Source: Alphaproteobacteria bacterium
Lineage (GTDB): Bacteria; Pseudomonadota; Alphaproteobacteria; CAAHEQ01; UBA3637
Reading direction: 5' to 3'
Length of the DNA stretch: 64,000 nucleotides
Assembly (NCBI GenBank): GCA_045631185.1
Contig: JAZQUH010000039.1
Location: 139,740-203,739 of the forward strand
Below the pieces are notes generated by a model, which worked only from the letters and a program-made list of their open reading frames with translations, was not told the origin of the DNA and made no database searches. Numbering within the stretch: the stretch's first letter is position 1; each line of letters begins with the position of its first letter. The translations under genes and the position numbers were made by a program. This document shows, piece after piece, positions 30,235 to 53,951 of the stretch.

Positions 30235-30286
30235 ATTTTAACAACTGATGGGGAAGAGTTATCTGACCCAAAAGAAAGGATATAAT

Positions 30287-31702
30287 ATGTATAACCCTAG
30301 ATCACCCAAAGCGGTGGATTTTATTGATAATCAAGAAGTTTTAGATACACTTGATTATGCCGAAAAAAATAAAACAAACAAAGAACTTATCAATCAGATT
30401 TTAGATAAAGCAAAGCAGTTGAGGGGATTGAATCATCGGGAAGCTTCTGTTATGCTTGCTTGTGAAATCCCTGAGGTAAATGCCGAAATTTTTCGTTTAG
30501 CTGAACAAATAAAAAAAGATTTTTATGGTAACAGAATAGTCTTATTTGCTCCGCTTTATTTATCAAATTATTGTGTCAATGGATGTGTTTATTGTCCTTA
30601 TCATTTAAAAAATAAACATATGCCACGTATAAAACTGACGCAAGAACAAATTCGTCAGGAAGTTATTGCCTTGCAAGATATGGGACATAAACGTTTGGCG
30701 ATTGAAACTGGTGAAGATCCTGTGAATAATCCGATAGAGTATGTGTTAGATAGTATTAAAACCATTTATTCCATTAAGCATAAAAATGGTTCTATTCGTC
30801 GGGTTAATGTCAATATTGCGGCAACAACTGTTGAAAATTACAGGAAATTAAAAGATGCAGGTATCGGAACTTATATTTTATTCCAAGAAACCTATAATCG
30901 TGAATCCTATGAAAAACTTCATCCAACAGGACCAAAGCATGATTATGCATGGCACACTGAGGCTATGGACAGAGCGATGCAGGGGGGAATAGATGATGTT
31001 GGTTTGGGGGTTTTATTTGGATTGGAATCGTATCGTTATGAATTTGCAGCACTTTTAATGCATGCTGAACATTTGGAGGCTTGTTTTGGTGTTGGTCCAC
31101 ATACCATTTCTTTTCCACGCATCAAAAAAGCCGATGATATAGATCCGAAAGCTTTTGATAACGGAATAGACGATGATATTTTTGCAAAAATAATCGCTTG
31201 TGTCCGAATTTCAACACCTTATACAGGAATGATTATTTCAACTCGAGAAAGTCAGTCATGTCGTGAGCGGGTTATTCGTTATGGTATTTCTCAAATTTCT
31301 GGTGCATCTCGTACTTCTGTTGGTGGGTATACACAACCTCAGCGTTCTCATGATTCGGAACAATTTGATGTATCCGACCAACGAACGTTGGATGAGGTTG
31401 TACATTGGTTGTTACAGATGGGGTATATTCCCAGTTTTTGTACTGCCTGTTATCGAGCAGGCAGAACAGGTGATCGTTTTATGTCTCTGTGTAAAAGTCG
31501 TCAAATTTTAAATTGTTGTCATCCGAATGCTTTGATGACATTAAAGGAATTTTTATTAGATTATGCTAGTTTTGAAACGCAAATGATTGGTGAAAAAGTT
31601 ATTCAGGAACAGTTGGAGAATATCACTAACGAAGCTGTTAAAAATATCACTATGCGTAATTTGGCCAAAATAGATTCTGGCGAAAGAGATTTTCATTTTT
31701 AA
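30287..31702 (+). CDS. hydG: [FeFe]-hydrogenase maturase HydG (radical SAM tyrosine lyase)
   Basis: CVNGCVYC (Cx3Cx2C) and C-terminal CTACYRAG...C cluster motif. About 470 aa. Start at ATG 30287 after aaaggat. Confidence 0.85.
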   Translation: MYNPRSPKAVDFIDNQEVLDTLDYAEKNKTNKELINQILDKAKQLRGLNHREASVMLACEIPEVNAEIFRLAEQIKKDFYGNRIVLFAPLYLSNYCVNGCVYCPYHLKNKHMPRIKLTQEQIRQEVIALQDMGHKRLAIETGEDPVNNPIEYVLDSIKTIYSIKHKNGSIRRVNVNIAATTVENYRKLKDAGIGTYILFQETYNRESYEKLHPTGPKHDYAWHTEAMDRAMQGGIDDVGLGVLFGLESYRYEFAALLMHAEHLEACFGVGPHTISFPRIKKADDIDPKAFDNGIDDDIFAKIIACVRISTPYTGMIISTRESQSCRERVIRYGISQISGASRTSVGGYTQPQRSHDSEQFDVSDQRTLDEVVHWLLQMGYIPSFCTACYRAGRTGDRFMSLCKSRQILNCCHPNALMTLKEFLLDYASFETQMIGEKVIQEQLENITNEAVKNITMRNLAKIDSGERDFHF

Positions 31703-31719
31703 AATAAAAAAGGATATTG

Positions 31720-32907
31720 ATGAATTGTTTATCATTAAATGAAACCCCTAAAGGTTTATGTCCTGTCATTTCCTTTATCGGTTGTTGTAATGTGGGTAAA
31801 TCTTCTTTGTTAAATGCTTTGACAAAAGAAGAAGTTTCAATTGTGTCTGAAATTAAAGGAACAACGACGGATGTTGTCCAAAAAAGGCATGAGTTAATTC
31901 CTGTGGGACCGGTTATATTTTATGATACAGCAGGTTTGGATGATACAAGTGATTTAGGGGAAAAACGCATACATGCGACAATGAAGGTTTTGGAAAAATC
32001 AGATTTAGTTGTTTTAATTTGTGCCGAAAAAGGAATTACAAAAACAGATAGTTTAATGATTAAAAAACTTAGATTAAACAGAAAAAAATTTGTTATTATC
32101 TTTAATAAGGATGATTGTGTTGTCCCACAAAAAAAAGATTTATCATTCTGTGAAGAACACCAAATTCCTTTTATAAAAACGAATGTTAAAAAGGATATTT
32201 CTTTCCTATATCATTTTTTGGCGGGTCAGATAGATTCGGAAGATATGGATTTATTTGGAAAATTTTTAAAAAAAGAAGATATTGTAATATTGGTTACACC
32301 TATAGATAAATCAGCCCCTAAAGGCCGCTTAATTTTACCTCAGGTTCAAACAATACGTGAAATTTTAAATAAACATGCCATAACAATAACAGCTCAACCG
32401 TCGGAATTAGTATCAACTTTAAACTGTTTAATCAGGAAACCCCGTTTAATTATATCTGATTCTCAAGTTGTAAAACAAGTTTCTCAACTTATTTCTTGTG
32501 ATATTTCTTTAACAACGTTTTCGGTTCTAATGGCAAAATTAAAAGGAGATATATCTGTTTTTAAAAAAAGTTTATCTGTTTTAAATCACTTAAATGATGG
32601 TGATAAAATTTTAATTTGTGAATCTTGTTCCCATAAAATTTGTTCAGACGATATTGCACATGTAAAAATACCAAATGCAATTAGAACTTATAGCAAACAT
32701 GATATCATTTTTGATTATACACATGGGGGTGATTTTCCTGAAAGTTTATCTGGGTATAAATTAGTTGTCCATTGTGGCGCCTGTATGTTTAATAAAACGC
32801 AAATGATGGCACGTATACAACAATGTTTAAGGGAAAATGTTCCCATTACAAATTTTGGGCTTCTTATGGCCAAACTTAATAACATTCATTTGGCGGATAT
32901 TTCATGA
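31720..32907 (+). CDS. hydF: [FeFe]-hydrogenase maturation GTPase HydF
   Basis: G1 GCCNVGKSSLLNAL, DTAG, NKDD. C-terminal CxH...HCxxC (CESCSH ... VHCGAC). Confidence 0.85.
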   Translation: MNCLSLNETPKGLCPVISFIGCCNVGKSSLLNALTKEEVSIVSEIKGTTTDVVQKRHELIPVGPVIFYDTAGLDDTSDLGEKRIHATMKVLEKSDLVVLICAEKGITKTDSLMIKKLRLNRKKFVIIFNKDDCVVPQKKDLSFCEEHQIPFIKTNVKKDISFLYHFLAGQIDSEDMDLFGKFLKKEDIVILVTPIDKSAPKGRLILPQVQTIREILNKHAITITAQPSELVSTLNCLIRKPRLIISDSQVVKQVSQLISCDISLTTFSVLMAKLKGDISVFKKSLSVLNHLNDGDKILICESCSHKICSDDIAHVKIPNAIRTYSKHDIIFDYTHGGDFPESLSGYKLVVHCGACMFNKTQMMARIQQCLRENVPITNFGLLMAKLNNIHLADIS

Positions 32908-33872
32908 CGTTGACAGAAGAAGAAATCGTATCTTTGTTAGTTGATTCAAAAAATCAACATCAATTATTCAAAAAGGCAGATCAAGTCAGACAGGAAAATG
33001 TTGGTAATTCTGTTTTATTAAGAGGATTAATAGAATTTTCAAATAGTTGTAAAAATAACTGTTTGTATTGTGGCTTGAGAAAAGATAATATTCAACTCAA
33101 ACGTTATAACCTTTCACAAGAGGATGTATTATGTTTGGTAAAAAATGCTGTTCAATTAGGCTTAAAAACAATAGTTTTTCAATCCGGGGAAAATTTTGTA
33201 TATTCATGTGATAAATTATGCCGAATAATTGAGCAAACAAAAAAATTTGGTGTTGCGGTTACATTAAGTATTGGCGAAAAAAGTTATCAGGAATATAAAG
33301 CGTTTCGAGATAGTGGTGCAGATCGGTATTTAATGCGTATAGAAACGACAGATCAAAAAGTATATCATGATTTAAACCCGGGTATGAGTTGGCAGCATCG
33401 TTATGAATGTTTACAAATGATTAAAGAACTTGGATATGAGTTGGGTTCAGGAATAATGGTTGGTTTACCCAGGCAAACATTAAAATCAATAGCACGTGAT
33501 TTGTTGTTTTTGAAAAAGTTGAAAATTGATATGGCAGGGATAGGACCATTTATTCCTCATCCTTGTACACCATTAAGTGATTGCAAGGCGGGAACATTGG
33601 ATTTAGCTTTAAGGACGATGGCAATTATGCGCATTTTATTACCACATATCAATATACCTGCAACAACGGCAATGGAAAATATAAATAAAAATGGCCAAAT
33701 AAAAGCATTGCAATCAGGGGCAAATGTTATCATGCTTAATGCAACTGATTCTTTACATCGTTCTTTATATGAAATTTATCCATCTGATAAATCCTACTAT
33801 GATACCTTATCAGATAATTATTTTGATTTAAAATGGAAAATTTATGCTATAGGGCGAAAAATAGATGGTTGA
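32904..33872 (+). CDS. hydE: [FeFe]-hydrogenase maturase HydE (radical SAM)
   Basis: CKNNCLYCGLR Cx3Cx2C near the N-terminus, BioB-like fold length (322 aa). ATGA overlap with hydF. Confidence 0.8.
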   Translation: MTLTEEEIVSLLVDSKNQHQLFKKADQVRQENVGNSVLLRGLIEFSNSCKNNCLYCGLRKDNIQLKRYNLSQEDVLCLVKNAVQLGLKTIVFQSGENFVYSCDKLCRIIEQTKKFGVAVTLSIGEKSYQEYKAFRDSGADRYLMRIETTDQKVYHDLNPGMSWQHRYECLQMIKELGYELGSGIMVGLPRQTLKSIARDLLFLKKLKIDMAGIGPFIPHPCTPLSDCKAGTLDLALRTMAIMRILLPHINIPATTAMENINKNGQIKALQSGANVIMLNATDSLHRSLYEIYPSDKSYYDTLSDNYFDLKWKIYAIGRKIDG

Positions 33873-34652: not shown

Positions 34653-36728
34653 TTATTTCAACAACATTTTGAAGTCCACCACAACGGCACGGTCTTTTGT
34701 GACCAATACAGGGTTGCCGTCAATGGATGTGATTTCGGGAATTTCCAAAACCAACTTTTGAACTTTTGCCAATGTATCGGCCAACGGTCCGACGGCTTTT
34801 GGATCTTCGCCACGCACACCATTCAAGATGGTACCGACTTTTGTTTCCTTAATCATGGCATCAAAGTCATTGGCGGGCAAGATACGCATTGTTGTATCAC
34901 GCATGACTTCGGTATAAATACCGCCTGTACCGAACACCAACACACGGCCGAAGTTCTTATCGGAATTGACGCCGATAATTGTTTCGGTGGCTTTGGTAAT
35001 CATTTCTTGAATCAAGACGCTGGCACCTTTTAATTCAAACTTGGCGATTGTGGCTGTCAAAGCATCAAAGGCTTCGTTGAATTTTTCTTCGGAATCAATG
35101 TTCAAATAGATACCCTTCATTTCTGTTTTATGTAAGGCATCAGGGGCCGACAATTTCAACACGACAGGGAAGATATTTTTGGCAAAGGCCAAAGCTTCGG
35201 CTTTATCGGTAAAGTTACCGCATTTCGGATAATCAATACCATAATGATCCATAATCATGTTCATTGTGGATTGCGGTAAAGAGGCCAAACCTTCGGAAAC
35301 GGCAGAAGCAACAGCGGCTTTAATATCGGCCGGCACTTCGCTTGTTTCAACTTTCACATCGGGCAATCCTTTGAATGCCATTTGGGCTTTCATCAAGCCG
35401 AGCAAACGGATACAGTCTGTCGGATAATCATAGGCCAAAATCTTGGCGTTTTTCAATAATTGAACGGCTTCACGCACACGGGAACCACCTATGAAAGAAC
35501 AATAGATATTGACGTTTTTATATTGTTCGGCCATTTTGATAACAGCTTGGGCTGTTTCAACGGGTTCTGTGGACATTTGCGGTGTCAACAACACGATGAT
35601 GTTTTTGTATTCACCGGATTCACACAACACACGCAAAGCATTTTCATAACGGTCTGCCTTGGCATCACCCACCACGTCAATGGGGTTACCGACGGAAGCT
35701 TCAGCGGTTAAAACGGCACGCAAAGCTTCAATTGTTTTTTCGGACGGTCTGGCCAAATCCAACTTGGCTTCTTCGCACAAATCAGAAGACAACACACCCA
35801 CACCACCGGCGTTTGTTAAAATACCGACAGCACCGCCAAAGTCTGTGTGATTAACGTTTTGCAATAATTCCAAAGCACCAAATAATTCACGGGTTGTATA
35901 AACTTGGATAGCACCACTGCGTTGCAAAGCAATTTCCAACACACGATAGTTGGGGGCCAAAGAACCTGTATGGGACAAGCTGGCTGCTTGGGCTTTGCTG
36001 GATTTACCCGGTTCCATAATTACACACGGTTTTGTTTTGGAAACTTCTTTCAATACACGCAAAAATTCCTGACCTTTTTTCAATCCTTCCAAATAGAACA
36101 CAAAAGCCTTGGTGTTTTCGTCATGTTGAATGAAGTCCAACAAGCTGGCTTCGTTCAAATCTGCTTTGTTACCCACGGAAATAAAGTGAGAAAAGCCAAT
36201 GCCTTTTTCTTCGGCCCAATCCAAAATCGCACTGCAATAAGCACCGGATTGAGAAATAAAGGCCACATTACCCTTTAATGGGAAGCAAGGTGCAAAAGAA
36301 GCATTTAATTTATCAAAAGTGGAAATATGTCCCAAACAGTTCGGACCCAACACATTGATACCGGCATCCAAACATTTTTTGGCAATTGTCAATTCCAATT
36401 CTTTATTACCGACTTCACCAAAACCGGCGGTAATAATGCTGATGTTTTTGGCACCGTTGGCGATGGCATCATCCACGGCCGCTTCACAAAAACGGGCCGG
36501 CACCAACAATACAACCAAATCAACGGCTTCGGGAATATCACGCACGGAGGCAAAGCATTTTTTACCTTTTAATTCCTGACCGGCCAATTTGGGATTCACT
36601 CCGTATAAATTGCCTTCAAAACCGGCATCAATCAAGTTATTAAAAACGACCGCGCCCAATTTGGATTCATCGGCCGAAACACCAACAACCGCCACGGATT
36701 TCGGTGCAAAGAATGTATTTAAAGACAT
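34653..36728 (-). CDS. ADP-forming acetyl-CoA synthetase (acetate--CoA ligase, fused alpha-beta, NDP-forming acyl-CoA synthetase family)
   Basis: N-terminal CoA-binding FFAPKSVAVVGVS...KLG. Succinyl-CoA-synthetase-like ligase domain with the phospho-His region SLSHTGSLA. C-terminal ATP-grasp domain. 691 aa. Confidence 0.8.
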   Translation of the reverse strand: MSLNTFFAPKSVAVVGVSADESKLGAVVFNNLIDAGFEGNLYGVNPKLAGQELKGKKCFASVRDIPEAVDLVVLLVPARFCEAAVDDAIANGAKNISIITAGFGEVGNKELELTIAKKCLDAGINVLGPNCLGHISTFDKLNASFAPCFPLKGNVAFISQSGAYCSAILDWAEEKGIGFSHFISVGNKADLNEASLLDFIQHDENTKAFVFYLEGLKKGQEFLRVLKEVSKTKPCVIMEPGKSSKAQAASLSHTGSLAPNYRVLEIALQRSGAIQVYTTRELFGALELLQNVNHTDFGGAVGILTNAGGVGVLSSDLCEEAKLDLARPSEKTIEALRAVLTAEASVGNPIDVVGDAKADRYENALRVLCESGEYKNIIVLLTPQMSTEPVETAQAVIKMAEQYKNVNIYCSFIGGSRVREAVQLLKNAKILAYDYPTDCIRLLGLMKAQMAFKGLPDVKVETSEVPADIKAAVASAVSEGLASLPQSTMNMIMDHYGIDYPKCGNFTDKAEALAFAKNIFPVVLKLSAPDALHKTEMKGIYLNIDSEEKFNEAFDALTATIAKFELKGASVLIQEMITKATETIIGVNSDKNFGRVLVFGTGGIYTEVMRDTTMRILPANDFDAMIKETKVGTILNGVRGEDPKAVGPLADTLAKVQKLVLEIPEITSIDGNPVLVTKDRAVVVDFKMLLK

Positions 36729-38798: not shown

Positions 38799-38942
38799 AT
38801 GAAATTGCATGAAAAAAAATCCAATAAATTAAAATGGGTGATAGGCTTGATTTTATTGGGCGTTATCGTTCTTTTTGCCGTGTGTGATTTTATGCCAAAA
38901 CAACAACAAATTGAAAAGCAAATTGTTCACAGCGTTTTATAA
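38799..38942 (+). CDS. small single-pass membrane protein, hypothetical
   Basis: SD aggagg 6 nt before ATG 38799. The 47-aa product has one TM (WVIGLILLGVIVLFAV). Its stop overlaps the xerD start. Confidence 0.45.
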   Translation: MKLHEKKSNKLKWVIGLILLGVIVLFAVCDFMPKQQQIEKQIVHSVL

Positions 38943-39859
38943 TGACCCCTCAAATTGATGCTTTTTTGGAAATGATGCAGGCACAACGGGGAGCTTCCGT
39001 CAATACTTTATCGGCCTATCGGCGTGATATGTATTTGTTGGATGAATATCTGTTGTCGCATCATTCGGGTTTGTTAAAAGCCACCGAAGATGATTTAAAA
39101 TCTTTTTTAAAGTTTTTAATGAATACGGGGGATTCGGTGCGCACTCGTGCCAGACGATTGTCCTGTATTCATGAATTTTATCGTTTTGCCTATTCGGAAG
39201 GGTGGATAAAGGTCAATCCGTCTGATTATTTACAAGGTCCGAAATTGCCCCAAACGTTACCCAAATACCTGACGGAAGATGAAATTTTTTTATTGATTCA
39301 GCAAGCCCGTGAAAACAATAAGCGCCTGTATGTATTGTTGGAGCTTTTATATGCCACCGGCATGCGTGTCAGCGAATTGGTTGGCTTGCCGTTGGGGGCT
39401 TTTGTGCCTGATGAACGGCATTTATTGATTTTGGGTAAAGGCGGGCGAGAACGAATCGTTCCGCTAAATGATTATGCAATTGATGCTTTGATTCAATGGA
39501 AACAAATACGTGAAAATGATTTGCCCTATAACCGCAAAAGCAAATGGTTGTTTCCTTCCAAAAGTTGCTTGGGGCATTTAACACGGGATACGTTTTTTAA
39601 AGAATTAAAAAAATTGGCTTTGCTTGTCGGATTGAATCCGGATAAGGTTTCGCCACATGTCTTTCGCCATTCTTTTGCCTCACATTTGGTGGCCCATGAT
39701 GCGGATTTGCGTTCCGTTCAACAAATGTTGGGCCACTCGGATATATCCACAACACAAATTTATACGCACATTTTACCCGACAGATTAAAAAAGATTGTTG
39801 AAAAATCTCATCCTTTGTCGTATAATGGAGCGAGGAAAAAAAATGAAGATAGCGGATAA
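38942..39859 (+). CDS. xerD: site-specific tyrosine recombinase XerD
   Basis: LSAYRRD, GPKLPQTLPKYL, ATGMRVSELVGL, HVFRHSFASHL, LGHSDISTTQIYTH. Confidence 0.9.
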   Translation: MTPQIDAFLEMMQAQRGASVNTLSAYRRDMYLLDEYLLSHHSGLLKATEDDLKSFLKFLMNTGDSVRTRARRLSCIHEFYRFAYSEGWIKVNPSDYLQGPKLPQTLPKYLTEDEIFLLIQQARENNKRLYVLLELLYATGMRVSELVGLPLGAFVPDERHLLILGKGGRERIVPLNDYAIDALIQWKQIRENDLPYNRKSKWLFPSKSCLGHLTRDTFFKELKKLALLVGLNPDKVSPHVFRHSFASHLVAHDADLRSVQQMLGHSDISTTQIYTHILPDRLKKIVEKSHPLSYNGARKKNEDSG

Positions 39860-42800
39860 ATACATTTTACGGCAACTGATTGTCGGCTTTTTATTGGTTT
39901 TAACCTGTATGACCATGCTGGTTTGGTTGACTCAATCGTTGCGTATGATTGATATGATTGTCACCAATGGCGTTTCTGTGGGTGTGTTTTTAAAAATGAG
40001 CCTTTTGGTTTTACCGCACTTTATGCAAATTTTAATGCCGTTAGCCTTGTTTGCGGTTGTTTTGTTTGTTTTTATTCGTATGCAATCGGACAAAGAATTG
40101 ATGGTTTTAAAGGCGGTCGGGATGGGCCCTTATCAGTTGATGAGCCCTGTTTTGAAGATGGCCGGCGTATTGGTGATAATCGGTTATTTCCTTTCATTGT
40201 TCTTGGTGCCGTATTCCGAAAATCAGGTGCGTGAAATGAAATGGAAAGTGCGCAATAATTTATCGCATGTGATGTTACAGGAAGGCCAATTTAATACCTT
40301 TAAAAAAGGAATGATGATTTATATCCGTGAACGTATGCCCAATGGTGCGATTAAGGGGATTTTGGCCTATGAAATGAAAGACGGTAAAAAATCCACTTTG
40401 ATTGCCGATGAAGGGACATTGTATCAATCCCCCGATGGGATAGAGGTTGTCTTTGGTCAAGGTGCCCGTCAAGAGTATAATCCCGAAACAAAACAATATT
40501 CTGTTTTAAAATTTGATAAATATACCGTTGCTTTGAATGATAAAAATCAATCGTCCGGTACACGCACACAAAAGGTCAAAGAATTGCCCTTTACACAATT
40601 ATTGACAATGAAGCGGGATGAAGCGCCCAATGAATCCACATGGCGTAAATATAAGGTGGAAGCGTTCAAACGTTTAACCCAACCGCTTTACAGCATTATT
40701 TTTGCTTTGTTGGCGTTGGTGGGGGTTATAACGGGCTATTATAACCGTCGCGGACAACCCATTCGTGTGAATGCGGTTGTGGGTTCGGCTTTATTGATTC
40801 AAACATTGGCTTTGGCCTTTGAAAATATTGCGGGTAAAAATTTATGGGGTTTGCTGTTGATGACTTTGAATATCGTGCTTCCATTGTGGATAATGGTGGG
40901 TATCTTTAAAAAAGAAAGTGGTCCCAAAGTGCCCAAAAAATATAAATATATGCTTCGTTTTGTGTTTTTGTTCGGGCTTTTATTTTCCGTTCAATCTTAT
41001 GCTTTTTCGGATATAGATACATCGGCCTTTAATAAAGATCAGCCCGTTGATTTTGAAGCCGATCATGTTTCCTATGATCAAAAGCAACAAACAATGACGG
41101 CTTCGGGCAATGTTGTATTGAAACAAAACGGTATTGTTTTTAATACGGATAAAATTTTGTATAATCAAAAATCCGATATGATTCATATCCCCGGTGAAGC
41201 CACAATGGTTTTGCCTGACGGTAATTCTTCGCTGGTGCGTGATATTCAAATTAAAGCCCATGGTGATGAAGTAAAAACAGGTAAAGGCAAGATGGATATG
41301 GCTGATGGAACGCACTTGTGGGCCAATCAAATTGTGCGTCAGGACGGTAAAGAAAATATCTTAAAGGATGCTTTTTATACACCATGTGAAATGTGTGAAA
41401 ATTCTTCACCTTTGTGGCAAATTCATGCCAGCTCGATTGAACAGGATGAAGAATCCCATATGATGCGTTTTTGGAATACCCGTGTTGAATTGAAAAATGT
41501 ACCGGTTTTATATTTTCCGTATTTTCAAATTCCCGATTATACAGTTAAGCGTCAAACAGGTTTTTTAACACCGACTTTTGGCAGTGATTCCGAATTAAAG
41601 GCTTATGTGAAAGCGCCGATTTTTGTGGATTTAGCCGAAAATCAAAATTTAACCATTACGCCGGTTGTGTCGTTTTCCCGCAATCCTTTGGGTATTTTGG
41701 ATTATCAGGGGCTGTTTTCAAAAGGTAAAGTTGAATTACAAACCAGTTATACCAAAGATGATGATGACAGAAAACAGGGACATATCCAATCCAGCTTTGA
41801 ATATGATATCAATGATTCTTGGCGTTTAACGGGGGGCTATAATCGTACTATTACGGATACTTATTTCCGTCGTTATAATGTGTTGGATGTGGATACCAGC
41901 CAATCTTTTTTAACCTCCCATTTAACGGGTGAATACTATGGTAATCGATTGTACGGTAACGCCACACTTTACAATTTCCAAAGTTTACAAGAAGGCGTCC
42001 GTTCTGAATCAATACCTGTAATTTTACCCGTCTTTAACATGCGTTATACGACAAAGCCCTTTACACAACAGGGCGGTATTATGTATTCGGATATCAATGG
42101 CGCCTTTATTAATGATCGCAATCATTTTAAATCCAACCGTTTGTCATTGACTCAGGGGATTTCGTTGCCGTATAAAACAAGTTTTGGTTTGATGACACAA
42201 CTTTCCGGATCCGTGCGTATGGATGGATACAGTGTGGATACAGGATTGACCGATATGGGCCCCCGTGCTCAGGATTCTTATTTTACGGGTCGTGTTTTTC
42301 CCCAGGCTGTGTTAAAGATAAGCTATCCGTTGATAAAAAAGAATGCTGAATATGCTCAGGTTTTGGAACCGATTGTCATGATAGTCGCATCTCCTAACGG
42401 CTCTAATCCCGATAAGATTCCCAATGTGGATAGTTCCGTTTTCGACTTTGATGATGTGAATTTGTTTTCACCCAACCGTTATATGGGATATGATAAAGTG
42501 GAATCCGGTTCGCGCATAAACTATGGTGTGCAATGGACTTTATACCAAACGGACAAAAAACGTTCCATTCAGGCTTTGTTGGGGCAAAGTATTCGTTTGC
42601 GTGAAAAAGACGAATTGGATGATGCCATGGGCTATGATGGCCATTTTTCCAGCTATGTCGGTCGTTTACAGTTAAATTATGATTATTTGACATTGGCCTA
42701 TCGTTTCCGTATGGCACAGGAAAGTTTTGAAGCACAAAAAAATGATATATCTGTTGAAGCGGGTTCATCTCCGCTCAGAATCGGATTGAATTACCTGTTC

Positions 42801-43091
42801 CAGGATTCTTTCCGTTTTGGGGATGTTTATTCAACTGCCAAAAAAGAAGTGTCGGTATATGCACGTTCTCGTTTGACCAAAAATTGGTCATTGGAAGGGC
42901 GTTATCGTTATAATTTATTAAAATCCGACAGGGGACCACTGGAAACATACGGTATTTTGCGCTATGATAATGAATGTGCCGCTGTTGAATTTGAGGCCAG
43001 TAAATCCTATACGCATGATCGCAACTATAAAGGCGATACCTCAATTACAATGCGCTTTTACTTAAAAACTTTGGGAGGATTCGGACAATGA
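39843..43091 (+). CDS. lptD: in-frame fusion of an LptF/LptG-family LPS export permease (residues ~1-369) with LPS-assembly protein LptD (from internal Met at 40950)
   Basis: YjgP/YjgQ-type six-TM N-terminal part (MKIADKYILRQL...). Then KKYKY-MLRFVFLFGLLFSVQSYA|FS, a signal-peptide-like segment. Then the OstA N-domain (VDFEADHVSYD...) and a long beta-barrel region. No stop codon between the parts. Confidence 0.75.
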   Translation: MKIADKYILRQLIVGFLLVLTCMTMLVWLTQSLRMIDMIVTNGVSVGVFLKMSLLVLPHFMQILMPLALFAVVLFVFIRMQSDKELMVLKAVGMGPYQLMSPVLKMAGVLVIIGYFLSLFLVPYSENQVREMKWKVRNNLSHVMLQEGQFNTFKKGMMIYIRERMPNGAIKGILAYEMKDGKKSTLIADEGTLYQSPDGIEVVFGQGARQEYNPETKQYSVLKFDKYTVALNDKNQSSGTRTQKVKELPFTQLLTMKRDEAPNESTWRKYKVEAFKRLTQPLYSIIFALLALVGVITGYYNRRGQPIRVNAVVGSALLIQTLALAFENIAGKNLWGLLLMTLNIVLPLWIMVGIFKKESGPKVPKKYKYMLRFVFLFGLLFSVQSYAFSDIDTSAFNKDQPVDFEADHVSYDQKQQTMTASGNVVLKQNGIVFNTDKILYNQKSDMIHIPGEATMVLPDGNSSLVRDIQIKAHGDEVKTGKGKMDMADGTHLWANQIVRQDGKENILKDAFYTPCEMCENSSPLWQIHASSIEQDEESHMMRFWNTRVELKNVPVLYFPYFQIPDYTVKRQTGFLTPTFGSDSELKAYVKAPIFVDLAENQNLTITPVVSFSRNPLGILDYQGLFSKGKVELQTSYTKDDDDRKQGHIQSSFEYDINDSWRLTGGYNRTITDTYFRRYNVLDVDTSQSFLTSHLTGEYYGNRLYGNATLYNFQSLQEGVRSESIPVILPVFNMRYTTKPFTQQGGIMYSDINGAFINDRNHFKSNRLSLTQGISLPYKTSFGLMTQLSGSVRMDGYSVDTGLTDMGPRAQDSYFTGRVFPQAVLKISYPLIKKNAEYAQVLEPIVMIVASPNGSNPDKIPNVDSSVFDFDDVNLFSPNRYMGYDKVESGSRINYGVQWTLYQTDKKRSIQALLGQSIRLREKDELDDAMGYDGHFSSYVGRLQLNYDYLTLAYRFRMAQESFEAQKNDISVEAGSSPLRIGLNYLFQDSFRFGDVYSTAKKEVSVYARSRLTKNWSLEGRYRYNLLKSDRGPLETYGILRYDNECAAVEFEASKSYTHDRNYKGDTSITMRFYLKTLGGFGQ

Positions 43092-44248
43092 AAAAAATAA
43101 TTTTCTTGTTGATGTGTGGGGTAAATTTTTCGCTTTCGGCCGGCAATTTAAAGGCAATTGTCAATGATGCCCCCATTTTTGAATCCGAGGTATCGGACCG
43201 TGTGGCTTTATTGACGGCACAACAACCGGCTTTACTGCAATCTATGAACTCATCCGAATTGGAAAAAATGGCCTTGGATAATTTGGTGGAAGAATATTTA
43301 AAAATTCAAAAAAGTCAGGCGCTGGGTGTCAAGGTTTCGGAAGACGAAATTGATCAGGCGATCAATCATTTGGAACAACAAAACGGCTTTTCTGTGGGAG
43401 GTTTGGCTAAAATGCTGGCCGAACAAAAAGTCCCCATGCAAACATTGCGTCAACAGGTTTATGGCGATTTAGTCTGGCTTTCTTATGCCCGTGCAAACGT
43501 GAAAAAAGTTTCCATTCCTGATTCAGCGGTTGAATCCCGTTTAAAACAAATAAAATCTGATATGGCCAAAGAAACCTTTACGGTGGCTGAAATTAAATTG
43601 CCCACGTTGGATCAGGCCCAAAATGTTTGGGAACAAATACAGGATGGAGCATCATTTTCTGAAATGGCAAGACGTTATTCGAATTCCGAAACGGCCAAAG
43701 CCGGCGGTTTTGTGGGTGTGATTCAGGCTGATTATTTTGGTGATAATATAACGCCTGTTATGCGTGAAATGCCTTTGGGGCAGGTGTCCCGTCCATTGGA
43801 TGTCGGAAACGCTTATTTAATACTTTATATGATGGATAAAAAGGCTTCTGTTACCGAAGAATCCATAGAATTATGGGAATTGGCACAAGGTGGTGTTGGT
43901 GATAAAGCCGATGCTAAGGCTATTTTATCGGCAAAAACCTGTGATGATTTTACCCGTATTTTGGCAAAAGAAGGAATTTCTCAATCCATACAACGTGGAT
44001 GGACGGATCCGTTCCAATTGCCCAAGGAATTGAAATCAATGTTGTCGGATGTGGTTGTGGGTGAAACTTTGGGTCCGGTGAAGGTACCGCAGGGGCAACT
44101 GTTTTTTATGAAATGCGGAGTGAAAACGCAACGTGTGATGCCCACTTTTGATGAAGTGCGGGAACAATTGGAAATTGAACAAATGGAAAATCAGGCAAAA
44201 CGTTTGTTAAATGCCGAAAAGCGTGAGGCAGTCATTGAATACAAATAA
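43088..44248 (+). CDS. surA: periplasmic chaperone / parvulin PPIase SurA
   Basis: Signal peptide, SurA N-domain and one parvulin domain (FSEMARRYSNSETAKAGGFVGVI). Follows lptD, the conserved order. Confidence 0.8.
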   Translation: MKKIIFLLMCGVNFSLSAGNLKAIVNDAPIFESEVSDRVALLTAQQPALLQSMNSSELEKMALDNLVEEYLKIQKSQALGVKVSEDEIDQAINHLEQQNGFSVGGLAKMLAEQKVPMQTLRQQVYGDLVWLSYARANVKKVSIPDSAVESRLKQIKSDMAKETFTVAEIKLPTLDQAQNVWEQIQDGASFSEMARRYSNSETAKAGGFVGVIQADYFGDNITPVMREMPLGQVSRPLDVGNAYLILYMMDKKASVTEESIELWELAQGGVGDKADAKAILSAKTCDDFTRILAKEGISQSIQRGWTDPFQLPKELKSMLSDVVVGETLGPVKVPQGQLFFMKCGVKTQRVMPTFDEVREQLEIEQMENQAKRLLNAEKREAVIEYK

Positions 44249-46479: not shown

Positions 46480-49173
46480 TCAAGTTTGAGGTTGTGATTT
46501 TGATGGATTTGGTTCAGGTGCACAAAGTAGTTCAGCTAAGCGATTTGCAATTGATTCTTTAGGAATCTGAACCGTAAAGTGATATTGCTGATCTGAATGT
46601 ACCTTTGATAAATCAAGGCCTGAATTTTGGTCCGCCCAAACAAAACAGTTTTTATCTGATGCCTTTTTACAGCATCCGGTATTACTTACTGTATTTGCCG
46701 GAACAACGCCATCAGAGAGGAAGAATAGAATAGAATTTTTTTGTCCGCACATAGTCTTGATTTCATTTTGAGCTTTTGAAAAACAAGTTTGCCCGTTACG
46801 TCCTCCCACTGTGCAATTATAAGCACAAAGACTTTGATCTAGGTTATAACCTTTTTGGCTAAAAGGATTAATGGTCGTATTATATTTGTTTCCCATACAT
46901 TTTTGTCCTGAGATCTCATTTTCTTCTGAGCCTTTATTATCCTCACGGAATATACCAATTTGAATGTCTTCGTTCACTTCTTCAATTGTTTGTATAATTT
47001 TATTTGTCAGGGTATTTCTATATCCATCAAAGCCATTAAAATAGGTTGAATAAGAATAATCAAGTAATAATGCAACGGAAATAGATTCGTTCGCTTCACA
47101 AATTCGTATACATTTATATTCTCCATTAACCAATTTGGCGGTTTGACCTCTTGGACAACAAATATACACTTGGTTATTGTCAGTGTCATTTGTTACGCGT
47201 GTCCAAAAATCTTCAGCAGTACTACATACACACATTAATAACTCATCGCTCCATTGTAAACCATCATCACATTGACAAGTTCCATTAACACATTTTGTTT
47301 GTCCGGTTCTTAAATGTTCTTCGTTTAGACAGTGCGAATCTGATTGACAACCGCACAAATGCGTTTCTAAGCATTTTGTTCCATCAATATTTCCTTCACA
47401 ATCAACGTCAGTTTCGCATCCGCAAAGTCCATTTTCCATGCATAAAATTCCCGGAGGACAATCTTCATTGACCTCGCAAGGACCGCATGTTCCTTTCGTT
47501 GCTTCACTTGTACGACATACCAAGCTACGATATTGTATACCTAGATTTTGGCATTCTTGCGTTGTTTCACATGGTTGGCATGTATCGTGTTCTTCTGGAT
47601 GTTCAGCATCTGTAGGAACACAAATAGGTGTTCTAATTGTTTCAAGGGCTGTCGGAGAGATGCCCGGAGTGAAACAATCTAAATGCTTTTCTTCATAGCA
47701 ATGCCTATTGAAGCGATCCATTTTATCTTCACCACATGATTTTCTTAAATCATGAAGACAAGGTCTGCAAATTCCAGCATCGCAATAATAATTTTCAGGG
47801 CAATCTTCATCTACTGAACAACCACCACAGGTGGAAACCCCATTGACTTCAACGCATTCTGAAGCGCAACATTGTCCATTGCAACAAAAAGTTTTATCAG
47901 AAGGACAACATTTTTGATTGCAACAATTATCTGATTCACAATCGCTGTTTTGGCTACAATTTTTGCATATTCCGTCTTCACAAATCTGACCGCTTGGACA
48001 ACAAACGCCTTGGCAGCAAACACTTGTATCAGAACAATCTTCATCTGTAGTACAGCCATTTCTTTCTGAACAACGTTTTACGCCATCAACGTTTTTGCAA
48101 TATGCTGTTATTCCCAAATGACTGCAATTACAGTTTGCGCTGCACGTTTCTCCCATACTTCTTGGTTGGCATTCGCATAATCCATTTACGATTTTGAAAA
48201 ATCCATTTGTTTCATCACAAGGAACACATTCATGATTTTCGTTGCAAAATGTACCTAAACCAACACCTGTTGAATTTGTACACTGTTCTCCAATATTTCT
48301 ACATTCAACACATTTTTCATTAACACATTCTGGTTTGGCAGGATCTGTACATTGCGTGTTGTTAATACACTCTACACAACGATTATCATCTTTACAATAT
48401 CGTCCGTTTTGACATCCACCACACAAACCACAATTTATGTCAGTACTATCACAACATTGTCCAATTCTGTCTTCTGTTTTGTTTTCAGGGCAATTATGAC
48501 ATTTTCCTCCATAAAAATATGCACAATCTTCACTTACTTTTCCAGCTCCATAAACAAATAATTGATTTCCTGTATCACATAATTTTTTTATTGCACTCGG
48601 ATTCTTTTTTAAATAATCAGGTGTGAAAGCATAAACATTTTCATCTAAATCTGTAATTAATTTAACATCATTTCCATCCATAGGATTTATGTTTTCAGGC
48701 GTAACAGTATTGGGAAAATTTAATACGGTATTGTCATTTTCTAATTGTTTTGCAGGAATTGCTAATGAAAAACCCCCAGCGTATGCCACTTCCTGACAAG
48801 AAATAGGATTTATATTAGAAGATAGAACAATAAAACTTGTTGAATCAGCATATTTATATAACTTGACCTGACCTCCATCTGCTGTTTGGGCGCAAGTTGA
48901 ATCGACTGCACATTTTTTTGCTTCTGGATAAACTTCTGTTATTTTGATCCGTCCAGCCTGTCCTGAATCTTTAACTTGTAAGCGGGAGCTTTTGTAACGT
49001 ACTCCTATTGTTGTTATTTGCTTTGCTGTTTCTTTGTATTTTAGGTAATCGAATAGCAACTTAAGACCTACAAGGGCGGAAATCAACAAAATCCCAACAA
49101 TTGCCAATACTGCAATCACTTCAATTAAACTTCTGCCTTTTTCGTTTGTTTTTTTTAACTTTGAATAAAACAT
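46480..49173 (-). CDS. prepilin-like N-terminus + cysteine-rich stalk + C-terminal vWA/MIDAS-like module (897 aa)
   Basis: MFYSKLKKTNEKG|RSLIEVIAVLAIVGILLIS. Hundreds of residues of Cys-rich repeats. C-terminal LLLDYSYS ... IQIGIF ... GGRNGQT ... ILFFLSDG. SD aaggagg. Confidence 0.7.
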   Translation of the reverse strand: MFYSKLKKTNEKGRSLIEVIAVLAIVGILLISALVGLKLLFDYLKYKETAKQITTIGVRYKSSRLQVKDSGQAGRIKITEVYPEAKKCAVDSTCAQTADGGQVKLYKYADSTSFIVLSSNINPISCQEVAYAGGFSLAIPAKQLENDNTVLNFPNTVTPENINPMDGNDVKLITDLDENVYAFTPDYLKKNPSAIKKLCDTGNQLFVYGAGKVSEDCAYFYGGKCHNCPENKTEDRIGQCCDSTDINCGLCGGCQNGRYCKDDNRCVECINNTQCTDPAKPECVNEKCVECRNIGEQCTNSTGVGLGTFCNENHECVPCDETNGFFKIVNGLCECQPRSMGETCSANCNCSHLGITAYCKNVDGVKRCSERNGCTTDEDCSDTSVCCQGVCCPSGQICEDGICKNCSQNSDCESDNCCNQKCCPSDKTFCCNGQCCASECVEVNGVSTCGGCSVDEDCPENYYCDAGICRPCLHDLRKSCGEDKMDRFNRHCYEEKHLDCFTPGISPTALETIRTPICVPTDAEHPEEHDTCQPCETTQECQNLGIQYRSLVCRTSEATKGTCGPCEVNEDCPPGILCMENGLCGCETDVDCEGNIDGTKCLETHLCGCQSDSHCLNEEHLRTGQTKCVNGTCQCDDGLQWSDELLMCVCSTAEDFWTRVTNDTDNNQVYICCPRGQTAKLVNGEYKCIRICEANESISVALLLDYSYSTYFNGFDGYRNTLTNKIIQTIEEVNEDIQIGIFREDNKGSEENEISGQKCMGNKYNTTINPFSQKGYNLDQSLCAYNCTVGGRNGQTCFSKAQNEIKTMCGQKNSILFFLSDGVVPANTVSNTGCCKKASDKNCFVWADQNSGLDLSKVHSDQQYHFTVQIPKESIANRLAELLCAPEPNPSKSQPQT

Positions 49174-49186
49174 TTATCCTCCTTCT

Positions 49187-51973
49187 TTATGAGCTTGTTT
49201 TACAGGAAGCTTGAATACTACATGCAGCACATTTATTAGTAAAGTCAAGACTTATATGGTAAGTGTGTCCCTTTTCTAGGGTGAGTGTTTTACTGATATT
49301 TGTTCCAACATCTCCATTTCTTAAATCTAAAAGGTAAGTATGGCTGTCTTTGTCATAAACAGAAAAATGTACAAACGAAGTAATTGATATTACATTGATT
49401 GATAATTCCATATCTGTATCGGAATCCACAAAGAAATCGGAATTGTCATACCATTCCCAACGATCAGAGTATTCTCTTTTATTTCCAAATGATTGACCAA
49501 TGCAACATGCCGTTCCGTCAGAATTACAGGAGCTGTTACAACATTTTGTTCCACAGCATTTTTTCATATTTGCCGAACAACATTTTTCATCACATACTAA
49601 TTTTCTACTCGGATTTAACCAACGACATTCAGCTTTGGTTTCATCCCATGTTTGACAGGCGTTACAAGAATCACATTGGTTGGTTGGTTTTTCACCATCT
49701 GTTAATGGACAATAATCTTCTGTGACTGTTTGACATTCTCCTTCAACAACTTTTGTATATGTAACAGTTGTTTTATGGCTTAAAGGGGCTTTTTTACCAC
49801 AAATGTCTTCATCACCATCTAAGGCGCAACATTCTATTCCTTCACAACTTTGAGTTGGGCAGGGTTTACATGTTTTTGTGGTTATATCACAATAGGTATC
49901 ACCTTCGCAGTCTGTATCTTCATTACAGCCTACACAAGTTGTTCCGTTTGTATCACAAACTTTTAAACTGGAATTACTTGCAGGCGGACAAGAGAATGCT
50001 TCTGTTTTCAGACATCCTTTATAAAGGGGAGCATTATTAGGATAATATTCATCTTCTTTTATGTTACAACTGCGATTAAAATTGGGACATTCCCGACATG
50101 TTGCATCATCACACCATGCATTTTCTTCACAGGTAATTGCTTTTGTTTTTAAACAACCTGCATAAAGTTGAATGTCAGAAAAATACTCATCTTCAGAAAT
50201 ATCGCAGCTTTCGTTTGGGACTGGACAATTTGAACAAGTGCCATCATCTGTACAATATTGATTTTCAGCACATGTTACAGCAGTTTTTATCAAACAACCT
50301 TGGGCATCATAAATATCTCCTTGACAGGAAGTTCCAGATGGTTCTGGGCAGCATTTGTTTCCATTTTCACCGGTTGGACGACATTGTGTTCCGTTTTTAC
50401 ATTGATTAGGACAAACGTCTTCGCCTGCGCAAGATTCACCATGGTTTAAACTATTTTGGGGCAAACATAAGCATTTATTTTGCTCACATTTAAGACCTTC
50501 CGAACAACCACATTCAGATATACAAGTTTCATCTTTTTTCGGTGATACATCACTACATTGGCATACACCTTCATCTTGTCCGTTTGACGAACAGCTTAAT
50601 CCGAAGCCACAACCACATTCTCCCCAACAAGGATCATTTCTTTTTACTGGTAAGGCGCCGCAACGGCAAAAACCGCTTTGACATGTTAAGGCATTAGTTA
50701 AGCAAGGACAACCTAAATTACATTTATCTCCCAAATATCTTGTTTCTGTGAAACCATTTTCTGTACAATTTGCTTCTTCACAAATCCCATTATTGCAATA
50801 TAACCCTTCTTCACAACTATCACACGCTAAGTTGCATTCTTCTCCGACTTTCGCTTTTGGTCCATTTGGGCATTGACATTGGTTGTCTATACAATCATAA
50901 CCAGTGGCACATTTATCAGGACATAACGGATATGTTGTAACATCACAAGCTTCTCCTCTTGCAATGGGTAATTGATCGCTGTTGCGGCAAATGCATTCTT
51001 GTAAAGAGGTATCCCAATATTTCCCATCACTTTCTTTACAATCATGGGATTCACATTCCAAATCATTATTACACCATTCACCTAAAATAACACCGCCGGA
51101 AGAATCTCGGCAAGGATCACCAACATGTTTGCAGGGTTTACATGTACCATCAGGACTACAATAAGGTCTATCCGGATTTTGACAATCGCTATCTTCTAAA
51201 CATTCTACACAACTGTCATACTTTGTTGAACAAAGTTTTCCTGTGGGACATCCGCCACACAAAGAACATGAAAGATTGGTTTCAATACAACAGTTTCCGT
51301 TTTTATCTTCAATTTCGCCTTGTGGGCAGTTGTGGCATTTTCCATCATAAAAATAACAATCATCTGTTTGTAAATCTTTCCCTGAATCATTTCCACCATA
51401 AATAAACAGGTGAATATTATATGAACAAAAATCCTTTAATTTTTCAGGGTTGGTACGCAATTCATCTGCCGTAAAATATTTTTGTGTTTGGTCCTCTTCT
51501 TTTGTAAAAACTCGACCTTCTCCTAAAAAATCATAAAAATTTTGGTCAGCTGTTGTTACTTGTGCGAAAGCCCCCTGTAAGATTGCTTCTTCACATGTCG
51601 TTGGTTTAATATTTTTGGTGACAACAACAAAAGAATTTGTATCCTGATATGAATAAAGTCTTAATTCGCCCCCATCAGGCAGTTGTGAACAGGTATTATC
51701 GTTGGGAGAATTAGCACATTTATTTCCTTCTGGGAAAACACGTTTCAGACTAACCATTCCGCTATCTTTTGTTGTGCCTCCCAATCGTTCTGATTTATAA
51801 CGAAGTCCAATGGTTGATATTTGTTTTGCGGATTCCTTTGTTTTTAAATAATCCAATAAAAATCTGAAACCGATTAATGCCCCGATCAATAATACCCCCA
51901 TAATTGCCATAACAGCAATTATTTCCATCATACTTCGGCCTGCTTCATAATAACGATTCTGTGTTTTACGCAT
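49187..51973 (-). CDS. prepilin-like N-terminus + cysteine-rich stalk protein (928 aa), paralogue of the downstream gene
   Basis: MRKTQNRYYEAG|RSMMEIIAVMAIMGVLLIG. The first ~200 aa are paralogous to the 897-aa protein. SD gaggggg. Confidence 0.7.
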   Translation of the reverse strand: MRKTQNRYYEAGRSMMEIIAVMAIMGVLLIGALIGFRFLLDYLKTKESAKQISTIGLRYKSERLGGTTKDSGMVSLKRVFPEGNKCANSPNDNTCSQLPDGGELRLYSYQDTNSFVVVTKNIKPTTCEEAILQGAFAQVTTADQNFYDFLGEGRVFTKEEDQTQKYFTADELRTNPEKLKDFCSYNIHLFIYGGNDSGKDLQTDDCYFYDGKCHNCPQGEIEDKNGNCCIETNLSCSLCGGCPTGKLCSTKYDSCVECLEDSDCQNPDRPYCSPDGTCKPCKHVGDPCRDSSGGVILGEWCNNDLECESHDCKESDGKYWDTSLQECICRNSDQLPIARGEACDVTTYPLCPDKCATGYDCIDNQCQCPNGPKAKVGEECNLACDSCEEGLYCNNGICEEANCTENGFTETRYLGDKCNLGCPCLTNALTCQSGFCRCGALPVKRNDPCWGECGCGFGLSCSSNGQDEGVCQCSDVSPKKDETCISECGCSEGLKCEQNKCLCLPQNSLNHGESCAGEDVCPNQCKNGTQCRPTGENGNKCCPEPSGTSCQGDIYDAQGCLIKTAVTCAENQYCTDDGTCSNCPVPNESCDISEDEYFSDIQLYAGCLKTKAITCEENAWCDDATCRECPNFNRSCNIKEDEYYPNNAPLYKGCLKTEAFSCPPASNSSLKVCDTNGTTCVGCNEDTDCEGDTYCDITTKTCKPCPTQSCEGIECCALDGDEDICGKKAPLSHKTTVTYTKVVEGECQTVTEDYCPLTDGEKPTNQCDSCNACQTWDETKAECRWLNPSRKLVCDEKCCSANMKKCCGTKCCNSSCNSDGTACCIGQSFGNKREYSDRWEWYDNSDFFVDSDTDMELSINVISITSFVHFSVYDKDSHTYLLDLRNGDVGTNISKTLTLEKGHTYHISLDFTNKCAACSIQASCKTSS

Positions 51974-52609: not shown

Positions 52610-53951
52610 AACTTGATTTTTTACTCTTTTCCGCATACGGATTTTCACGTTTTCTTAATTGTATCCGAACTGGGATACCCGTGATACCGAATTCATCCCT
52701 CAAACCGTTGGATAAATAACGGATATAGCTGTCGGGCAATTTATCGGGATTGGTTGTGAAAATAACAAAGGTTGGCGGACGGGTGCTGACCTGAGTCATA
52801 TACTTTAACGGCACACGTCGGCCGTTTTTGGCCAAAGGTGTGGGATGGGCTTCTTTCATCATTTCCAAAAACACATTTAATTTATGTGTGGGAATACGTT
52901 TGTTCCACAAAGCGTAAACCTTGAAAACCGCCTCCATCAACTGATTTAAACCATAGCCTGTTTTGGCCGATACAGGGATAACATTCAAATCTTTGACCTG
53001 TTGCAAAGATTCGTACATGCGTTCTTTTATTGGCCCCCAAACTTTTTGCGGATTTTCCACCGTATCCCATTTGTTTAAGGCAATAACCAAACAACGGCCT
53101 TCTTTTAAAACACGGCTGGCAATCAATAAATCTTGGCGTTCCATGGGTTGATTGATATCCAATACCAATACAACCACTTCGGCAAAATCAATGGCGGTTT
53201 GGGTATCTTCACCGGACATTTTTTCCAAATCATCCGAAATTTTTCCGAATTTTCTTAAGCCTGCCGTATCGGTCAGCTGGATGGCCTTATCCTGCCATGT
53301 CCAATTGACGGAAATAGCATCCCGTGTGACACCGGCTTCGGGCCCTGTCAACAATCGGTTTGTGCCCAACATTTTATTGATAAGTGTGGATTTACCCACA
53401 TTGGGACGACCGACAATGGCCAATTTTAAAGGCCGTTCTGCTGTGCTTTCCTCTTTGGTTTCTGATTCTTGAATCAACGGCAATAAAATATCGGCCAATT
53501 CTTCAAAGCCGATTTTATGTTCGGCAGACAATCCCAAAGGACGACCCAAGCCTAATTGATAAAAATCGTTCAGACTTTCTTTTTGTTTGCTACCTTCGCA
53601 TTTGTTGGCAATTAAAATAACAGGCTTGTGTGTTTTATGCAACTCTCTGGCCAAATCCCGATCCAAAGCATTGATTTCTGTGCGGGCATCTGATATCATC
53701 AATATGATATCGGCTTCATTGATGGCCACCCGAGTTTGCTCCCACATGGCTTTGGCTAAATCGGTTGTCTTTTCCAAACCGGCCGTATCAATCAAACGGA
53801 AGGTTTGTTTTTTTATGCTGGCCGTGGCCTCTTTTCTGTCGCGGGTGACACCGGGTCTGTCATGAACCAAGGCCAAACGTTTGTGGCATAATTTATTAAA
53901 CAAAGTGGATTTTCCGACATTTGTCCTTCCGACAATAGCAACTGTTTTCAT
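52608..53951 (-). CDS. der: ribosome-biogenesis GTPase Der (EngA)
   Basis: Two G domains (GRTNVGKSTLFN and GRPNVGKSTLIN) plus a KH-like C-terminus. Confidence 0.95.
   Translation of the reverse strand: MKTVAIVGRTNVGKSTLFNKLCHKRLALVHDRPGVTRDRKEATASIKKQTFRLIDTAGLEKTTDLAKAMWEQTRVAINEADIILMISDARTEINALDRDLARELHKTHKPVILIANKCEGSKQKESLNDFYQLGLGRPLGLSAEHKIGFEELADILLPLIQESETKEESTAERPLKLAIVGRPNVGKSTLINKMLGTNRLLTGPEAGVTRDAISVNWTWQDKAIQLTDTAGLRKFGKISDDLEKMSGEDTQTAIDFAEVVVLVLDINQPMERQDLLIASRVLKEGRCLVIALNKWDTVENPQKVWGPIKERMYESLQQVKDLNVIPVSAKTGYGLNQLMEAVFKVYALWNKRIPTHKLNVFLEMMKEAHPTPLAKNGRRVPLKYMTQVSTRPPTFVIFTTNPDKLPDSYIRYLSNGLRDEFGITGIPVRIQLRKRENPYAEKSKKSS

Follow-up and report, generated by a model that had tools for sequence, protein, structure and literature searches.

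At the two ends of the canonical lipopolysaccharide (LPS) transport machine, the E. coli-type LptB2FGC-LptA-LptDE assembly, stand LptF, a permease with six transmembrane (TM) helices, a jellyroll, and a coupling glutamate, and LptD, a jellyroll followed by a barrel with conserved cysteines and prolines. Both termini of LptF are cytoplasmic in the solved LptB2FG structures, and LptD is an essential 26-strand outer membrane barrel that ranks among the hardest substrates of the machinery for beta-barrel assembly (BAM) and is a current antibiotic target. To our knowledge, descriptions of LptD have always been of a precursor that is translated on its own and targeted by its N terminus. Here we describe a gene, lptF::lptD, in a 64,000-nucleotide stretch of an uncultured alphaproteobacterium (GenBank assembly GCA_045631185.1, contig JAZQUH010000039.1, positions 139,740 to 203,739 of the forward strand; this whole stretch is called the window below, and its own numbering is used). 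The gene keeps the canonical features of both proteins, but it encodes them in one open reading frame (ORF), its LptD signal peptide is internal and follows a polytopic protein, and LptD export would be coupled to the cotranslational insertion of LptF in place of starting at a free N terminus.

Related arrangements are known outside LPS transport. The fbcH gene of Bradyrhizobium japonicum reportedly encodes a cytochrome b-c1 polyprotein that carries an internal signal peptide and is cleaved posttranslationally into two subunits. Like lptF::lptD, it would join a polytopic inner membrane protein, by way of an internal signal peptide, to a partner that faces the periplasm, in an alphaproteobacterial host; both of its products, however, are said to remain in an inner membrane complex, whereas the second product here would be an outer membrane beta-barrel that has to leave the inner membrane, traverse the periplasm, and be folded by BAM. 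Flavivirus-type polyproteins are cut at internal signal sequences by the signal peptidase of the endoplasmic reticulum (ER), and there too a TM or signal segment after a cytoplasmic loop sends the domain that follows it to the trans side, with an AxA-like cut, but the enzyme is the eukaryotic ER signal peptidase and the system has no relation to envelope biogenesis. In some cellulose synthase operons, BcsA and BcsB form a single polypeptide, which has been read as enforcing equimolar assembly (PMC8892547). This is likewise an inner membrane transporter or synthase fused to a periplasmic partner from an adjacent gene, but BcsB is tail anchored in the inner membrane and no outer membrane component is involved. 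Full-text searches for a natural LptF-LptD fusion in the literature found no description of one, only engineered fusions. The LptF and LptD parts of the gene are ordinary; the way in which they are joined is not.

An earlier reading of the window (here, the original prediction) had claimed an in-frame fusion of an LPS permease with LptD, and the claim holds: positions 39843 to 43091 of the plus strand form one uninterrupted reading frame of 1,082 codons plus a stop, with no internal stop codons, in which Pfam recognizes LptF_LptG, LptD_N, and LptD. The same frame opens upstream at TTG 39795; the alternative start is ATG 39843, and homologs begin at the equivalent of this ATG (MKI.DKYIL...), giving a product of 1,082 amino acids (aa). 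The gene and its parts are as follows.

39843 to 43091, plus strand: lptF::lptD, a single ORF (ORF analysis, Pfam, NCBIfam, homolog search).
39843 to 40916, plus strand: LptF moiety, residues 1 to 358, with TM1 to TM3, a periplasmic beta-jellyroll at about residues 150 to 230, and TM4 to TM6 at 264 to 358 (Pfam, NCBIfam, AlphaFold 2 [AF2], Foldseek).
40917 to 40958, plus strand: basic cytoplasmic loop after TM6, residues 359 to 372 (the KKESGPKVPKKYKYMLR region), the n-region of the predicted signal peptide; it holds the nonconserved Met370.
40959 to 41003, plus strand: h-region and c-region, residues 373 to 387 (FVFLFGLLFSVQSYA), with a predicted signal peptidase I (SPase I) cut after Ala387, between nucleotides (nt) 41003 and 41004.
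41004 to 41042, plus strand: linker, residues 388 to 400, the predicted N terminus of mature LptD; variable, with a column conservation of 0.38.
41043 to 41492, plus strand: LptD N-terminal beta-jellyroll, OstA/LptA-like, about residues 401 to 550 (Pfam LptD_N, AF2 strands at 403 to 550), with conserved Cys515 and Cys518.
41493 to 43088, plus strand: LptD C-terminal beta-barrel, about residues 551 to 1082 (Pfam LptD, Foldseek, PDB matches), with conserved Cys1045 and invariant Pro554, Pro559, and Pro564.

The fusion recurs well beyond this assembly. In a search of 5.8 billion protein clusters, the best 120 matches listed all have the LptF plus LptD architecture, and at least 119 clusters are full length (1,065 to 1,096 aa, 98 to 100% coverage, 45 to 99% identity) and come from NCBI, ENA, JGI, and Logan assemblies. 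Named cluster members are entries of the type "MAG: Alphaproteobacteria bacterium" (MAG, metagenome-assembled genome) and are annotated as either LptF or LptD. A scan of genome-collection contigs found three close relatives, and five relatives (46 to 72% identity) share the order corC-aroK-(gene of ~47 aa)-xerD-lptF::lptD-surA-folD, so that the fusion is present in related genomes, where the original prediction proposed to look for it. Going by these assemblies, a deep clade of uncultured gut-type Alphaproteobacteria has kept the fusion.

Such breadth bears directly on whether the fusion could be an artifact. A sequencing or assembly error might hide a stop codon or frameshift, as the original prediction had cautioned, or programmed slippage might separate the products, and the junction in the window does contain two A6 runs. 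However, the same unbroken architecture is found in the at least 119 clusters, down to 45% identity, and in two further lineages; nine fetched loci have no internal stops; and the homopolymer runs are not conserved, being absent at the junctions of loci L004, L007, and L008, so that the junction was rejected as a slippery site. An ORF of 1,082 codons in DNA of 37.5% guanine-plus-cytosine (GC) content, the value for the window, that is full length in so many clusters is far beyond chance and rules out an artifact; we regard error or slippage as vanishingly improbable.

The junction itself reads as the original prediction wrote it: IFKKESGPKVPKKYKY is followed by Met370 (ATG at 40950), by LR, and by the hydrophobic stretch that ends in Ala387, after which the predicted mature LptD begins with Phe388 (FSDID). 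Its statistics come from 121 aligned sequences, the window protein and 120 homologs. Column conservation is 0.53 to 0.74 in the domains, falls to 0.21 in the loop and 0.31 in the h-region, and stands at 0.95 at position -1 of the predicted cut. Every sequence has Ala (115), Ser (5), or Gly (1) at this position, the Ala387 column, and every sequence has Ala (75), Val (21), Ser (16), or Thr (9) at position -3, the Ser385 column. Position -2 is free, with 18 different residues; position -4 is enriched in S, P, T, and Q; and Pro occupies +1 in a single sequence. The loop is basic throughout (median net charge +5, range +1 to +9), the uncharged h-plus-c stretch has a median length of 17 aa, and the distance from the cut site to the conserved VDFEAD strand, also 17 aa at the median, is similar to that in free LptD. 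With its n-region, its h-region, and the (-3,-1) rule kept, the junction is, by prediction, an SPase I substrate of textbook anatomy. That positions -3 and -1 are fixed amid a drifting segment argues for a constraint beyond what a permanent membrane anchor needs. A lipoprotein signal for SPase II was also considered and rejected, as Cys is found at +1 in none of the 121 sequences and there is no lipobox.

In view of these patterns, we consider it probable that the product of the gene is a natural polyprotein precursor, in which the internal signal peptide serves as a seventh TM segment and is the site of a cut by leader peptidase. LptF would be translated first and inserted cotranslationally as a six-TM protein with its C terminus in the cytoplasm. 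Because that terminus is cytoplasmic and the loop after it is basic, the positive-inside rule would place the next hydrophobic segment N-in/C-out and LptD in the periplasm. The loop would stay inside while residues 373 to 384 insert as a short seventh TM segment, forming a hairpin with TM6, and SecYEG would thread the following ~700 LptD residues into the periplasm. A cut by leader peptidase (SPase I) after Ala387 would then leave LptF with a C-terminal stub of ~30 residues, made up of the loop and the signal-peptide helix, and release mature LptD from Phe388 onward, to be taken up by SurA, the product of the next, translationally coupled gene, and for BAM to fold into the outer membrane. Both ends of the LPS bridge would thus be made at the same membrane site, in fixed 1:1 amounts.

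A different route to separate proteins would be translation of LptD from its own internal start, ATG 40950 in the window, with the read-through fusion a tolerated by-product of stop loss. Met is kept as the first signal-peptide residue in the window and in loci L002 and L003, a weak promoter-like match lies at 40866 to 40894, and initiation that is leaderless or lacks a Shine-Dalgarno (SD) sequence occurs in some Alphaproteobacteria. Yet promoter-like matches in the region number 21 against a shuffled expectation of 18.7, and no SD-like motif is present in the 20 nt before ATG 40950, as originally predicted; nor was a conserved one found in the junction DNA of the fetched loci, where L002 supplies the sole match, a weak AGGA ahead of GTG362. 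The Met370 column holds Met in only 8 of the 121 sequences, and loci L001, L005, and L008 have no in-frame ATG, GTG, or TTG between TM6 and the h-region, yet their LptD is intact and conserved. A conserved internal start is rejected on these grounds. With Met370 so rarely kept and several relatives devoid of a start codon at this point, LptD in this clade would be made only by translation through LptF, and we consider a separate internal start improbable.

If the fusion were instead never cleaved, the hydrophobic segment would be a permanent seventh TM anchor, and the protein, with LptF in the inner and the LptD barrel in the outer membrane, would form a covalent LPS conduit across the envelope that might bypass LptC and LptA. 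The ORF is continuous with both domains conserved, the hidden Markov models (HMMs) of LptA and LptC weakly match the first strands of LptD_N, and a search with the LptD_N HMM for LptA- or LptC-like ORFs in 320 kb of related sequence, which covers little of any genome, matched LptD itself alone. A plain anchor, however, has no need of the small-residue rule that all 121 sequences keep at -3 and -1 while the neighboring positions drift. The hydrophobic stretch is short as well, both in the alignment and in the AF2 model (mean predicted local distance difference test [pLDDT] score, 76.5), which gives a low-confidence helix of 17 aa at residues 365 to 381, compared with 23 to 33 aa for TM4 to TM6, and then a disordered segment at 381 to 398 with pLDDT below 50, the modules on either side being well folded. 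Judged by the known dimensions of the Lpt bridge, the ~17 residues that lead to the first jellyroll strand would be too short to span a normal periplasm. A permanent tether is thus quite unlikely. A bolder version, which we put forward as speculation and think rather unlikely, would make the covalent precursor a functional assembly intermediate: the tethered LptD jellyroll would lie beside that of LptF and template each bridge, the stub would serve as an LptC-like TM helix at the lateral gate of LptF, an uncleaved fraction would in the extreme case act as a single-chain conduit, and the recurrence of the fusion would reflect selection for coupled biogenesis of both bridge ends and not a neutral loss of stop codons.

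The original prediction had proposed that the signal peptide acts as a seventh TM helix and that one translation event yields both proteins. The conserved -3 and -1 positions and the lack of a conserved start have strengthened this polyprotein reading, and several points weigh against it. The window and its closest relatives, L002 and L003, retain an ATG where the signal peptide begins, and some internal initiation may occur in this sublineage; the cut by SPase I is a step that we infer; and the members of the family are all uncultured MAGs. In addition, neither the window nor 12 related loci yielded a separate LptG. The window has one LptF/G-type gene, as originally claimed, and the second one, which the original prediction proposed to locate, was found neither by tblastn of the window nor by profile HMM at an E value of ≤10 in the window plus the 12 loci (320 kb in total), and no PF03739 neighbor lies within 10 kb at any of 10 looked-up loci. 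The transporter may be LptB2FG or LptB2F2. Cultured relatives with the same lptF-lptD order presumably have LptG elsewhere, and by analogy the same may be expected here.

Both moieties have the features of working Lpt proteins. In the permease, Pfam LptF_LptG (PF03739) spans residues 6 to 345 (1.9e-66, 225 bits against a cutoff of 27.9). The NCBIfam LptF model TIGR04407 scores 240 bits (cutoff, 230) and the LptG model TIGR04408 scores 101 bits; scored separately, each half of the permease favors LptF over LptG. LptF chains also lead LptG chains in a PDB sequence search (~1e-16 and ~1e-6), and Foldseek places LptF 9dok_F at 4.9e-15, with TMt values of 0.61 to 0.77 for LptF chains. The AF2 model has helices at 2 to 42, 46 to 82, 96 to 138, 264 to 296, 306 to 332, and 336 to 358, with strands at 150 to 230 between TM3 and TM4. 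The original label of "LptF/G" is therefore right as to a six-TM, YjgP/YjgQ-type permease and can be narrowed, as the protein is LptF-type in both halves and neither LptG nor a chimera. An LptF/LptG chimera formed by a recombination that deleted lptG was rejected on the same scores and on the lack of lptG between lptF and lptD in unfused relatives. Glu85, invariant in 50 sequences, aligns with residue 84 of E. coli-type LptF, where E84 is the coupling-helix glutamate that contacts LptB (PMC5082905).

On the LptD side, Pfam LptD_N (PF03968) covers residues 405 to 536 (25.8 bits; cutoff, 20.4) and Pfam LptD (PF04453) covers residues 646 to 1015 (7.8e-43, 147.7 bits; cutoff, 22.4). Gammaproteobacterial NCBIfam LptD equivalogs reach 156 bits (cutoff, 683), a shortfall that a distant alphaproteobacterial LptD would be expected to show. 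The Foldseek matches include full-length LptD (8h1s, 7.6e-39; 5iv9, 6.7e-37) and barrel-only entries (TMt, 0.74 to 0.77), a PDB sequence search is concordant, and AF2 beta strands of this part span residues 403 to 1074. Cys515, Cys518, and Cys1045 are invariant and placed as expected for a predicted disulfide between jellyroll and barrel. The departure from canonical LptD lies in targeting: in place of an independently translated precursor with an N-terminal signal peptide, the signal peptide is internal, at about residues 359 to 387. Many columns of the alignment are invariant; both moieties are under purifying selection, and the hallmarks of functional LptF and LptD are present.

The nearest unfused relatives indicate how such a gene could arise. 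When the LptF part was used in a HMMER scan of 1.84 billion representatives, the fused family appeared as a few 50% clusters (P0001, P0124, and P0125, plus P0121 and P0122, both truncated), and stand-alone LptFs ranked after these, at ≤39% identity. The closest of the latter, P0126 (locus L009) and P0283 (L010), lie in the order aroK-small gene-xerD-lptF-lptD-surA-rsmA...folD, with lptF and lptD separate and no lptG between them. The L009 junction consists of TAA, AAGAGGCTGCTG (12 nt), and ATG, all in frame, and one substitution in this stop would be enough to restore the fusion. In L010 and L012, lptF and lptD overlap as TAATG, and in the cultured Telmatospirillum sp. J64-1 (L013, 10001 to 16441) lptF is followed, after a 40-nt gap, by lptD-surA-pdxA-rsmA, with no lptG within 10 kb. 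These lptF-lptD-surA operons resemble the fused loci in gene order, in neighbors, in the lack of an intervening lptG, and in the anatomy of the LptD signal peptide, which is here a normal N-terminal one; they differ in that a stop is present and lptD has its own start and SD. The original prediction took lptF-lptG-lptD to be usual, which does not hold for these nearest relatives or for Telmatospirillum. In the loci compared, direct lptF-lptD adjacency is widespread in this part of the Alphaproteobacteria, a Rhodospirillales relative included. Because adjacent lptF and lptD without lptG are the rule in the nearest unfused relatives, the fusion is best explained by loss of a stop codon, not by deletion of lptG. 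The ancestral state is, on this comparison, an lptF-lptD operon, and the unfused loci look like the state before fusion.

That loss would have occurred more than once between the adjacent, already coupled genes. A second fused lineage (P0159, P0388, and P0389; 1,103 to 1,111 aa; L011) has junctions of the anatomy described above, such as KKVKK, a hydrophobic stretch, and ANA with the predicted cut before Q; an independent third fused lineage keeps this anatomy too. Its closest relative, P0393 (L012), is unfused (lptF of 380 aa, lptD of 750 aa); the more distant P0390 and P0391 (1,134 to 1,163 aa) are fused again; and a truncated high-GC fusion, P0215, is more distant still. This interleaving of fused and unfused states along the similarity gradient implies, as far as sequence similarity can tell, at least three transitions. 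Ranking by identity gives consistent results for the LptF and LptD halves throughout, so each fusion would have arisen in situ from the adjacent genes of its own lineage. In a rough neighbor-joining tree of LptF domains the main clade is monophyletic and P0159 falls outside it, but multiple origins are argued chiefly from the identity ranking of both halves and not from this tree.

The genes and signals that flank the fusion are the following.

38942 to 39859, plus strand: xerD-type tyrosine recombinase gene (NCBIfam tyrosine recombinase, 322 bits; XerD, 299 bits).
39798 to 39826, plus strand: putative promoter-like TTGAAA-17-TATAAT, an 11/12 consensus match within the xerD 3' end, 17 nt 5' of the fusion ATG.
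43088 to 44248, plus strand: surA-like periplasmic chaperone gene, the same downstream neighbor in all related loci.

The 3' end of xerD, an upstream neighbor that is also kept in L004 to L010, shares 17 nt with the start of the fusion, and GGAGCGAGG precedes ATG 39843. A TATAAT or TATAGT box at equal distance is kept in L001 to L008, at a site that doubles as coding sequence for the XerD C terminus. At the other end, the fusion TGA and the surA ATG overlap as ATGA (43088 to 43091), with GGGAGGA 10 nt 5' of the surA ATG, an arrangement expected to couple translation of the LptD moiety to that of its likely chaperone. Between aroK and xerD lies a 46-aa ORF (MKLHEKKSNKLKWVIGLILLGVIVLFAVCDF...; 38802 to 38942, plus strand) with one hydrophobic helix and no Pfam match; a gene of 44 to 49 aa fills this slot in L004 to L009 and L012, in fused and unfused lineages alike.

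The rest of the window gives some idea of the host. A HydG/HydF/HydE-like [FeFe]-hydrogenase maturase cluster (30248 to 33872, plus strand) and a gene resembling ADP-forming acetyl coenzyme A (acetyl-CoA) synthetase (34653 to 36728, minus strand) suggest an anaerobic, fermentative alphaproteobacterium. Envelope biogenesis is further represented by genes for a 1,218-aa AsmA-family protein (10019 to 13675, plus strand), for an OmpA-family protein (14752 to 15405, plus strand), and for BamB, the last adjoining der/engA (53948 to 55195, minus strand). Two large neighboring ORFs without a Pfam match lie on the minus strand at 46480 to 49173 (897 aa) and 49187 to 51973 (928 aa), and L005 has genes of 893 and 1,020 aa, also without Pfam matches, in the syntenic slot 3' of a RarA/MgsA-like gene. 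A VirB4/CagE-like ATPase gene is found at 2624 to 5143 (plus strand); in L004, L007, and L008 (~15400 to 23200), just 3' of folD, a run of genes without Pfam matches is followed by VirB8- and CagX-like genes of a type IV secretion cluster. A DUF6538/phage-integrase-family gene (61862 to 63757, plus strand) comes right after a tRNA (61700 to 61773) and may mark the edge of an integrated element. An Rfam scan of the window returned four tRNAs and no other matches.

This clade and at least two further lineages appear to make LptD as the C-terminal two-thirds of a polytopic inner membrane protein. A practical matter is annotation: such genes currently bear the name "LptF" or the name "LptD," and one of the two functions is thereby hidden. 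If the proposed processing is correct, an internal signal peptide can serve to export an outer membrane barrel once six TM helices have been inserted cotranslationally, and the LPS bridge would have its first and last jellyrolls produced 1:1 at one site, which would bear on how the trans-envelope bridge is nucleated. In Brucella, LptF is focal and LptD is dispersed (PMC9938171). The family would offer a natural, evolutionarily replicated construct for the study of outer membrane protein export coupled to the signal recognition particle and SecYEG, of internal cleavage by SPase I, and of Lpt stoichiometry.

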